Origin: Schmidtea polychroa
Taxonomy: Eukaryota
Length of the DNA stretch: 64,000 bases
Assembly (NCBI GenBank): GCA_044892525.1
Contig: CM097885.1
Coordinates: 145,452,001 to 145,516,000 of the forward strand
Direction: 5' to 3'
Shown piece after piece: positions 23,034 to 24,422 of this stretch. The notes under the pieces are model-generated. The model saw only the letters and a list, made by a program, of their open reading frames with translations, searched no databases and was not told the origin of the DNA. Made by a program: the position numbers and the translations under genes. The number at the start of each line of letters is the position of its first letter. Position 1 is the stretch's first letter.

Positions 23034-24422
23034 ATGGATAAACGACAAAGAGAAGAGCTTAAAGAGATTGTCAAACAAGTCCGAAAGTCTGCCACGATCA
23101 GAATACACAAACACGTCATGTGTGGAATATGCGAAAAATTGTTAGAAGAACCTCGCCAAACCCAATGTGGATGCAGATTATGTAAGGAATGTATCAGCGA
23201 AGCAATAAAGACTAGACCACAGTGGTGCCCGGTGTGTAAAGAGACCCTGATATCAAGCTTAGAAGACACTAACGAAGATAAAGCCGCAGTGAAGGACATG
23301 CTAAACACAAATCTGGGATGTAAAAATACCCCATGCGAATGGAAAGGACTAATATGGAAAGTAGTACAACATATGGGAGAATGTATGTACAGAATCGGCC
23401 AGTGTGAAAGGTGCCATAAAACCATTCGAGCAAGCGAAGAAAAAGAACATCAAAGCCAGTGTGAAGAGAGACTAGAAAGATGTGAACATTGTGGAGAAAT
23501 AGATACGTGGAAAAATCTCACCATCAAACATCACAATATCCAAGAGGAAAAGGTATGTGCAGAGTTCAGTGGTGAATGCCCGAACGGATGCAACGAAAGG
23601 GGAATAATCAAACTGGCCCAACACCTGAAGGAATGCAAAAAGAAAAAAATGATATGCGTACTAGGTAAATGGGGCTGCCAGAAACTACTACACCGAGGGG
23701 AATTACCACAACACCTAACCGAAAACGCATCAACTCACGCAGAGATGTGGTCGACTGCGTTGCAAGAAAGTGAAGAAAAAGTACAACAAATGGAGATAGA
23801 AATAACGTCGCTGAAAGCATTAGTAAAAGAACTATTGGGGGAAAGAGAAGCGTTCGAAGAAGCCCGAGCAAACATAAAGATGCAAATAAACCGAATAGAA
23901 ATCATTAATAATCAGGCCAAGGTGCTACATCAAAAGATAACTGAGATAAATCTCAATGAAGTAATACCAACCGCACCCTACATATGGAAAATAACGGGAG
24001 TAAAAGAAAGAATACGAAAAGCAAAAACCGGAGAGGAGACAAAAATAACGAGCCCCGCATTCCAGTCTTGGAAAAATGGGTACAAAATGAAAATGAAGAT
24101 ATATCCCAACGGAGACGGAACCGGATTAGATACACACTTCTCGGTTTTCTTTCTGTTATGCAAAGGGGAATACGACGAAATAATAGAATGGCCGTTCCAG
24201 GCGAAGATCGACATCGCACTAATGAATGACCGAAACATCCACGAACAAAGCTTCAAGACGACGGGAAACCAAATGTGTTACCAGAGACCTCCGGAGGAAG
24301 AAGGATCAGCAACGGGAGCGCCTACGTTCATTCTACAACAAAAAGTAGAGGATATGGCGAGAAATAACACAGTATATATCAAGAAGACCGTGAGGAAAGA
24401 GGGGAAGGGTAGAACAGAGTAA
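23034..24422 (+). CDS. TRAF: Full-length intronless TRAF-family protein (RING, TRAF zinc fingers, coiled coil, MATH)
   Basis: CGICEKLLEEPRQTQCGCRLCKECI..CPVC; CKNTPCEWKG..HMGEC; WKITG..SPAF..GYKMKMKIYPNGDGTGLDTHFSVFFLLCKGEYDEIIEWPF, the TRAF2/3/5-type MATH signature. Confidence 0.92.
   Translation: MDKRQREELKEIVKQVRKSATIRIHKHVMCGICEKLLEEPRQTQCGCRLCKECISEAIKTRPQWCPVCKETLISSLEDTNEDKAAVKDMLNTNLGCKNTPCEWKGLIWKVVQHMGECMYRIGQCERCHKTIRASEEKEHQSQCEERLERCEHCGEIDTWKNLTIKHHNIQEEKVCAEFSGECPNGCNERGIIKLAQHLKECKKKKMICVLGKWGCQKLLHRGELPQHLTENASTHAEMWSTALQESEEKVQQMEIEITSLKALVKELLGEREAFEEARANIKMQINRIEIINNQAKVLHQKITEINLNEVIPTAPYIWKITGVKERIRKAKTGEETKITSPAFQSWKNGYKMKMKIYPNGDGTGLDTHFSVFFLLCKGEYDEIIEWPFQAKIDIALMNDRNIHEQSFKTTGNQMCYQRPPEEEGSATGAPTFILQQKVEDMARNNTVYIKKTVRKEGKGRTE

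Follow-up and report, generated by a model that had tools for sequence, protein, structure and literature searches.

The 64-kb stretch of Schmidtea polychroa DNA analysed here (the window) contains, at positions 23034–24422 of the forward strand, a single open frame of 1389 nt that runs from an ATG to a TAA and encodes 462 residues with no internal stop. The predicted protein has the complete domain order of a TRAF adaptor: an N-terminal RING of the C4C4 type (residues 30–68; 23121–23237), five TRAF-type zinc fingers (96–235; 23319–23738), a coiled coil equivalent to TRAF-N (232–306; 23727–23951) and a MATH or TRAF-C domain (316–455; 23979–24398). Pfam recognised the RING just above threshold (zf-C3HC4, 21.6 bits against a cut-off of 21) and the MATH domain clearly (MATH_2, residues 316–450, E 2e-25). 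The zf-TRAF model gave no score at E 0.01 in this frame, and the fingers were assigned from structure matches and alignment. Residues 28–164 matched the solved TRAF6 RING and zinc fingers (E 4e-10; Foldseek 3hcs, E 1e-12), the best solved-structure matches of the whole frame were TRAF1/2/3 domains (E about 1e-25), and a Foldseek search with the model returned TRAF domains in 28 of the 28 matches listed. The coiled coil is a helix at residues 232–306 of the predicted structure (mean pLDDT 92, pTM 0.50). The five Cys/His finger motifs align with those of relatives; in 12 aligned proteins that share only 28–38% identity with this one, the zinc ligands never vary. Word-indexed homologue searches were sparse, with one match among 3593 candidates in one search and two among 5200 in another. 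When the protein is aligned with four full-length close relatives (P0005, P0013, P0014 and P0015), no internal gap exceeds 14 residues, thus the frame contains neither an intron nor a large deletion. The first-pass annotation had described a complete, intronless TRAF gene with all its domains in an open frame, and both parts of this description hold.

The TRAF frame lies in the 3′ part of a retroelement, here called element B, all identified parts of which are on the forward strand. It begins in the window with a gag frame (10960–12039; open reading frame and Pfam) that is truncated at its 5′ side by a second retroelement, element A, and carries three knuckle motifs, the first of them degenerate. 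The following polyprotein segment (11940–13487) holds a candidate ubiquitin/SUMO-like domain at about 13011–13262 and, unlike that of element A, no MATH domain. This ubiquitin-like region had no Pfam match; its Atlas feature score of 0.90 to ubiquitin and Rad60-SLD clusters (ranks 9–10) is a lead only. A weak Bcl-2-like stretch (14028–14231; Pfam E 0.0014, under the cut-off, with a blank Atlas search) precedes an env-like fusion glycoprotein of the mononegaviral type (14358–16277; Monjiviricetes_fusion, E 1e-72), which is thus placed between gag and the protease. Protease, reverse transcriptase, RNase H and integrase were identified by Pfam at 16319–20287, with in-frame stops at 17606 and 17855. 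Between protease and reverse transcriptase there is a spacer of dUTPase size, for which the structure search gave no solved-structure match. The polyprotein ends in an ankyrin-repeat tail (20089–22428; Ank_2, E 4e-22) that is reached from the integrase by a frame change. Downstream of the ankyrin frame follow five accessory frames on the same strand, of which TRAF is the second. The first (22589–22948) is open and encodes 119 residues without a Pfam family. The third (24613–25640) is coiled-coil-like and seems to be divided in two by a frame change near 24774–24819, the fourth (25758–26513) is coiled-coil-like and open, and the fifth (26553–27147) has hydrophobic stretches and is apparently split near 26833–26894. 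The 5′ part of element B is missing, and the portion in the window measures about 20 kb without the insert described below.

From gag to ankyrins the polyprotein of element B comprises about 3800 codons with six breaks, namely stops at 13485, 17606 and 17855 and three frame changes. We regard these as lesions because in related polyproteins a single frame spans env, pol and ankyrins. The last two stops lie inside the reverse transcriptase, and pol of this copy is dead, as had been proposed from the first reading. The polyprotein aligns with that of element A on both sides of the MATH domain of A, which itself is absent from B. A search for pol-related polyproteins with element B gave 891 matches, and about 20 of the 120 listed were 46–50% identical; most of these about 20 share the env type and two have ankyrins. 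No named Burro sequence was among the matches listed. No TRAF or MATH domain occurred in any of the 120 matches listed (of 891), in a search that covered proteins of up to 4045 residues, compared with the 4873 of Burro1. As a side observation, the polyproteins P0157–P0176, P0180, P0182 and P0184 are 40–50% identical to the pol of B, most have env before the protease, none has MATH, and some carry an additional aspartyl-protease, C2H2 or ankyrin domain. The design with env inside the polyprotein may be more widespread than the Burro elements described so far.

The 3′ boundary of element B is marked by a candidate LTR at 27363–41467 (TGTTGGG ... CCCAACA, forward strand), about 3.9 kb long after subtraction of an insert. 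Its start, TGTTGGGCT at 27363, matches the start of the LTR of element A and the starts of two solo copies, at 43760 and 60810, and the CCCAACA at 41467 is the inverse of the LTR start. The end motif taken alone is weak, with a chance of about 13% of arising in the stretch at random and ten occurrences on the forward strand of the window. The window contains a single LTR of B, the 5′ LTR lying outside. Within the candidate LTR, a frame at 40186–40941 (+) is weakly related to a frame in the LTR of A (E 4e-4) and to a relic at 55141–55650 (E 1e-5). Related coiled-coil-like frames without a Pfam family are encoded in LTRs at 9441–9950 (−), 40186–40941 (+), 55141–55650 (−) and about 44180–44293 (+); those of element A and of the relic are 61% identical and both open. 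The candidate LTR also contains a near-perfect 68-nt hairpin (28226–28293), and 28200–29790 may represent a further insertion. The insert that interrupts the LTR is a Polinton/Maverick-like relic of 10.2 kb (29796–40036) with AGTAGT ends, a 6-bp target duplication (GTTATA), 1.1-kb inverted repeats that are 98% identical, and remnants of pPolB and an adenoviral protease. It contains a zf-C3HC4_3 RING frame (30885–31442, −) so that a RING gene is found in a third mobile element here.

Element A lies upstream on the reverse strand. Its polyprotein (3–5468) is open over 1822 residues to the window edge and shows the order gag, MATH, ubiquitin-like region and start of a Bcl-2-like region. The MATH domain (1485–1955; E 1e-26) is 36–37% identical to that of the TRAF protein. 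The 5′ LTR of A (9023–10959, 1.94 kb, TGT...ACA) directly adjoins the gag of B, and a motif resembling a primer-binding site comes next (9018–9002); A thus inserted into B and looks the younger of the two. The motif presumably matches tRNA-Pro. No tRNA gene was found in the 64-kb window. Partial or solo copies of the LTR family of A, 64–91% identical, occur at 43162–43760, 47448–47900, 48736–49040, 54805–55610 and 59880–60810. Elsewhere in the window there are two GC-richer frames without a Pfam family (50462–52024, +; 52804–53959, −) and a 134-codon frame (46413–46817, −) whose conotoxin match in Pfam is under the cut-off and probably due to chance.

The position of the TRAF frame, between the ankyrin end at 22428 and the candidate LTR start at 27363 and on the same strand as both, is that of an element gene. 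The A-over-T skew is unbroken across 21000–27000 (0.30–0.54). Third codon positions of TRAF (A 0.45, T 0.13) resemble those of the polyproteins of A and B (A 0.38–0.48, T 0.16–0.22) and differ from those of four Polinton-like frames (A 0.29–0.35, T 0.38–0.44); the comparison is one between element and Polinton-like frames, the window having no host gene as a control. Immediately before the TRAF ATG there is an AT-rich tract ending in AG (23020–23036). The same arrangement precedes three of the 3′ frames (tracts at 22575, 23020 and 24598; ATGs at 22589, 23034 and 24613), compared with 0.15 expected in 300 first-order simulations, a pattern that was chosen after it had been seen and a null model that ignores AT-rich spacers. 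These signals are possibly splice or trans-splice acceptors. Position, shared composition and the related MATH domain in a second element bear out the proposal that the gene is carried by a retroelement, and that TRAF is cargo of element B is, in our view, very probable. Against this reading stands that a second flanked copy of the gene was not seen, its relatives being known as proteins.

Phylogenetic trees agree with this assignment. In a MATH tree of 35 chosen rows, from which the other MATH-bearing matches and all multi-MATH proteins were left out, the MATH of element A forms a clade with P0001 (the TRAF protein) and P0005 (support 95/90). A quick tree of 112 rows likewise joined P0001 and the MATH of A (SH-aLRT 85). 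In a 34-row tree of RING and fingers, P0001, P0005, P0002, P0111, P0018 and P0024 form a clade (98/96). Out of 116 proteins ranked for residues with A-rich codons, these six take places 1–5 and 7, as expected if all of them, known as proteins without flanks, were element-borne. All three branches of the MATH clade are long (0.96–1.11) and have a composition bias in common, and a tree that joins P0001 to the slower clade of P0013, P0014, P0015, P0019 and P0022 was not rejected (p-AU 0.064). Within these bounds, the trees show that the predicted protein belongs to a fast-evolving TRAF group, which includes the MATH domain fused into the polyprotein of element A.

All eight zinc ligands of the TRAF RING are Cys, with the motif CGCRLC. 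The first-pass annotation had noted that the usual RING His is replaced by Cys; the replacement is there, but it is not peculiar to this protein. In an alignment of 116 proteins of 250–620 residues the position is Cys in 25 (query included), His in 66, another residue in 17 and a gap in eight. The 24 Cys-bearing proteins among the 115 others include nearly all of the nearest full-length relatives and members of the slower clade. On these grounds the C4C4 RING probably predates the capture. Residues I32, P66 and K69 occupy the positions of a RING that usually face the E2. A private or inactivating His-to-Cys change was considered and rejected, given how common the variant is and that C4C4 RINGs can be ligases: TMEM129 and CNOT4, both of this type, are reported as active (PMC4024746), so the variant is compatible with E3 activity of TRAF.

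The receptor groove of the MATH domain, mapped by alignment with TRAF1, is altered. The serine triad, S-A-S in TRAF1 and S-x-C in slower relatives, is Q413-M414-C415, and the positions of R393 and C469 in TRAF2 are occupied by K355 and A429. The full set of three receptor hot spots of TRAF1/2/3/5, which include the serine triad and R393/Y395, was not found in the TRAF sequence. Groove residues Y357, F372, F407 and Y416 are kept or conservative, and the aromatic pocket is largely retained. With Q-M-C in place of the triad and Lys at the R393 position, the specificity for receptors or peptides has probably shifted. The same substitutions would fit a cargo protein that acts as a decoy by binding to TRAFs or receptors of the host and thereby blocking signalling, without ubiquitin ligation. 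However, the ligands of RING and fingers are all kept across the clade, and a pure decoy would have no need of them; the conserved groove residues likewise speak against it. A decoy is therefore rather unlikely, and we favour a cargo TRAF with a RING that is probably active.

The first-pass annotation had also attached meaning to an intact TRAF next to a dead pol, and this part of it fails. The probability that 1389 nt stay open is 0.48 with six lesions in 11.5 kb and 0.55 with five. It is 0.49 at the whole-element rate, in which the two apparently frameshifted accessory frames are counted, and 0.25 under the harshest count, which uses pol lesions only. Chance alone thus gives an open frame about half the time, without any need to invoke selection on this copy; selection on TRAF in the dead copy was rejected by this lesion-rate test, and the frame is open by chance. 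Domestication by the host, with selection holding TRAF open in this copy while the element decays, would account for the contrast with the three stops and three frame changes of the polyprotein, and a host benefit has been reported for the IAP of Burro1 (cited via PMC13465017). But the open frame is expected about half the time anyway, the 3′ frames at 22589 and 25758 and polyprotein stretches of 956 and 809 codons are likewise open, and the LTR is broken by a 10-kb insertion. We consider domestication of this copy very unlikely and retain the reading of TRAF as cargo in a decaying element.

It is still more doubtful that a cellular single-exon TRAF, or a processed retrocopy of one, inserted into the element after its death without ever having been mobilised by it. 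Insertions lie nested within one another in the window, TRAF-like genes are numerous in planarians, and the AU test does not reject a grouping with the slower TRAF clade, all of which would suit such an event. The gene itself does not look like a late arrival: its codon bias is element-like, the sequence before its ATG resembles that of the neighbouring accessory frames, no poly(A) run occurs in the 200 nt 3′ of its stop, and a related MATH domain sits inside element A. That misassembly fused a host TRAF to element sequence can practically be dismissed, for the four N gaps of this repeat-rich window all lie outside 1–35072 and the composition is continuous across TRAF.

Taken as a whole, the data are probably best explained if TRAF has long been carried as an accessory gene by a Burro-like Gypsy retroelement with an env, whose architecture by itself points to a triclad flatworm as the most likely host. 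An ancestral element would have captured a cellular TRAF, C4C4 RING included, as a spliced mRNA; its descendants would retain either the complete gene in a frame of its own, as in element B, or the MATH domain alone within the polyprotein, as in element A and Burro1. The AT-rich tracts with AG before three of the 3′ frames suggest that TRAF may be expressed from a spliced subgenomic RNA. By analogy with TRAFs in which coil and MATH trimerise and bind receptor tails (PMC6125299), the protein would trimerise through these parts and serve as an adaptor, probably also as an E3 ligase, in survival and immune signalling of the TNF-receptor or Toll type. In concert with the other cargo (Bcl-2-like, ubiquitin-like and ankyrin), it might keep the element-expressing cell alive or quiet. 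This role in cell survival or immune damping is suggested by the company of the gene, by the captured IAP of Burro1, which is reported to protect stem cells from apoptosis (via PMC13465017), and by cellular planarian TRAFs, which are described as needed for cell survival and lethal upon RNAi (PMC7586133); we think that it could hold or fail with equal ease.

The finding touches on the TRAF expansion of planarians. One planarian transcriptome is reported to contain 121 MATH domains (PMC6109357), another TRAF/MATH count gives 282 contigs (PMC7586133), and 'traf' occurs 100 times in a table of 393 planarian RING/U-box transcripts (PMC8807557, Table S1), whose authors leave the significance of the expansion unresolved. 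The available text of PMC6109357 and PMC7586133 contains no link between the expansion and Burro or other retroelements, and that of PMC8807557 no word starting with 'transpos'. Thousands of planarian Burro copies carry MATH, alongside an unexplained TRAF/MATH expansion. Taking up the suggestion of the first-pass annotation that host TRAF expansions could be borne by transposons, one could speculate that Burro elements carry a distinct, fast-evolving lineage of complete C4C4-RING TRAFs, from which a large fraction of the planarian TRAF-like genes, roughly 100 in number, derives. In that case, some of the genes now annotated as a host expansion for immunity and regeneration would be accessory genes in the viral style, or domesticated offspring of such genes, and their expression would rely on spliced subgenomic RNAs like those of complex retroviruses. 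We regard this as doubtful. Near-identical transposon copies would be expected to collapse to few transcript contigs, Burro1 of S. mediterranea is described with MATH only, and the contigs of Table S1 were picked for RING, which would weigh against the link as well. A full-length, RING-bearing TRAF in a Burro-like element makes the proposal testable in existing genomes. It also provides a second captured RING ligase, a predicted one, for an element family whose captured IAP reportedly aids regeneration; if the link to the expansion fails, it is a modest addition to the list of Burro cargo.

Capture of TRAF domains by such elements is not new in itself. The published layout of planarian Burro/GYPSM1 elements includes MATH_TRAF_C, Ubi2/SUMO-like and BCL2-like domains, an env between gag and pol, and ankyrins, and MATH/TRAF cargo has been described for them also in an accessory frame (PMC6431247). 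Between them, the elements in the window show two or three CCHC gag knuckles, the same env placement, MATH_TRAF_C cargo and ankyrins. As far as that layout allows a comparison, they share with Burro1/GYPSM1 and Burro2–4 of Schmidtea mediterranea a gag with three knuckles, an env of the mononegaviral type placed ahead of the protease, pol, MATH cargo, ankyrin repeats and a multi-kb LTR, and they have candidate ubiquitin/SUMO-like and BCL2-like stretches at the places where the Burro elements have these domains (PMC6431247). Burro-like elements have one giant polyprotein, 25–30 kb in total and long LTRs; the portion of element B in the window, which lacks the 5′ part, measures about 20 kb. Element A has the Burro1 order of gag, MATH, ubiquitin-like and BCL2-like domains (PMC6431247). 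Element B differs from Burro1 in that its polyprotein lacks MATH and a complete TRAF (RING, fingers, coil and MATH) occupies a frame of its own 3′ of pol. Burro1 has a BIR domain, for which no match was found in the scanned frames of A and B, both of them only partly inside the window. In a Burro-like element of Dugesia tigrina, MATH is also absent from the polyprotein and present in an accessory frame; there, however, the frame lies upstream, whereas that of B lies downstream, and the review names the MATH_TRAF_C domain only (PMC6431247). The TRAF of element B is a fuller version of this known capture. We found no description in the literature of an accessory gene 3′ of pol that encodes a TRAF of full length with its RING, nor a test of whether Burro cargo contributes to the planarian TRAF expansion; Grohme 2018, Lee 2026 or Jurka 2007 may show such a gene. 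The B-IAP of Burro1 (Lee et al. 2026, via PMC13465017) is likewise a captured host regulator of apoptosis with a RING, but it consists of BIR and RING and has a demonstrated stem-cell function according to that source, whereas the gene of element B is a TRAF and known here from its sequence. With TRAF2/3/5-type adaptors, including planarian Smed-TRAF-2A/B, the element TRAF has in common the RING, five fingers, coil and MATH (PMC6125299, PMC7586133); it differs from them in its C4C4 RING, the loss of the serine triad, its long branch, its A-rich codons and its location in a mobile element.
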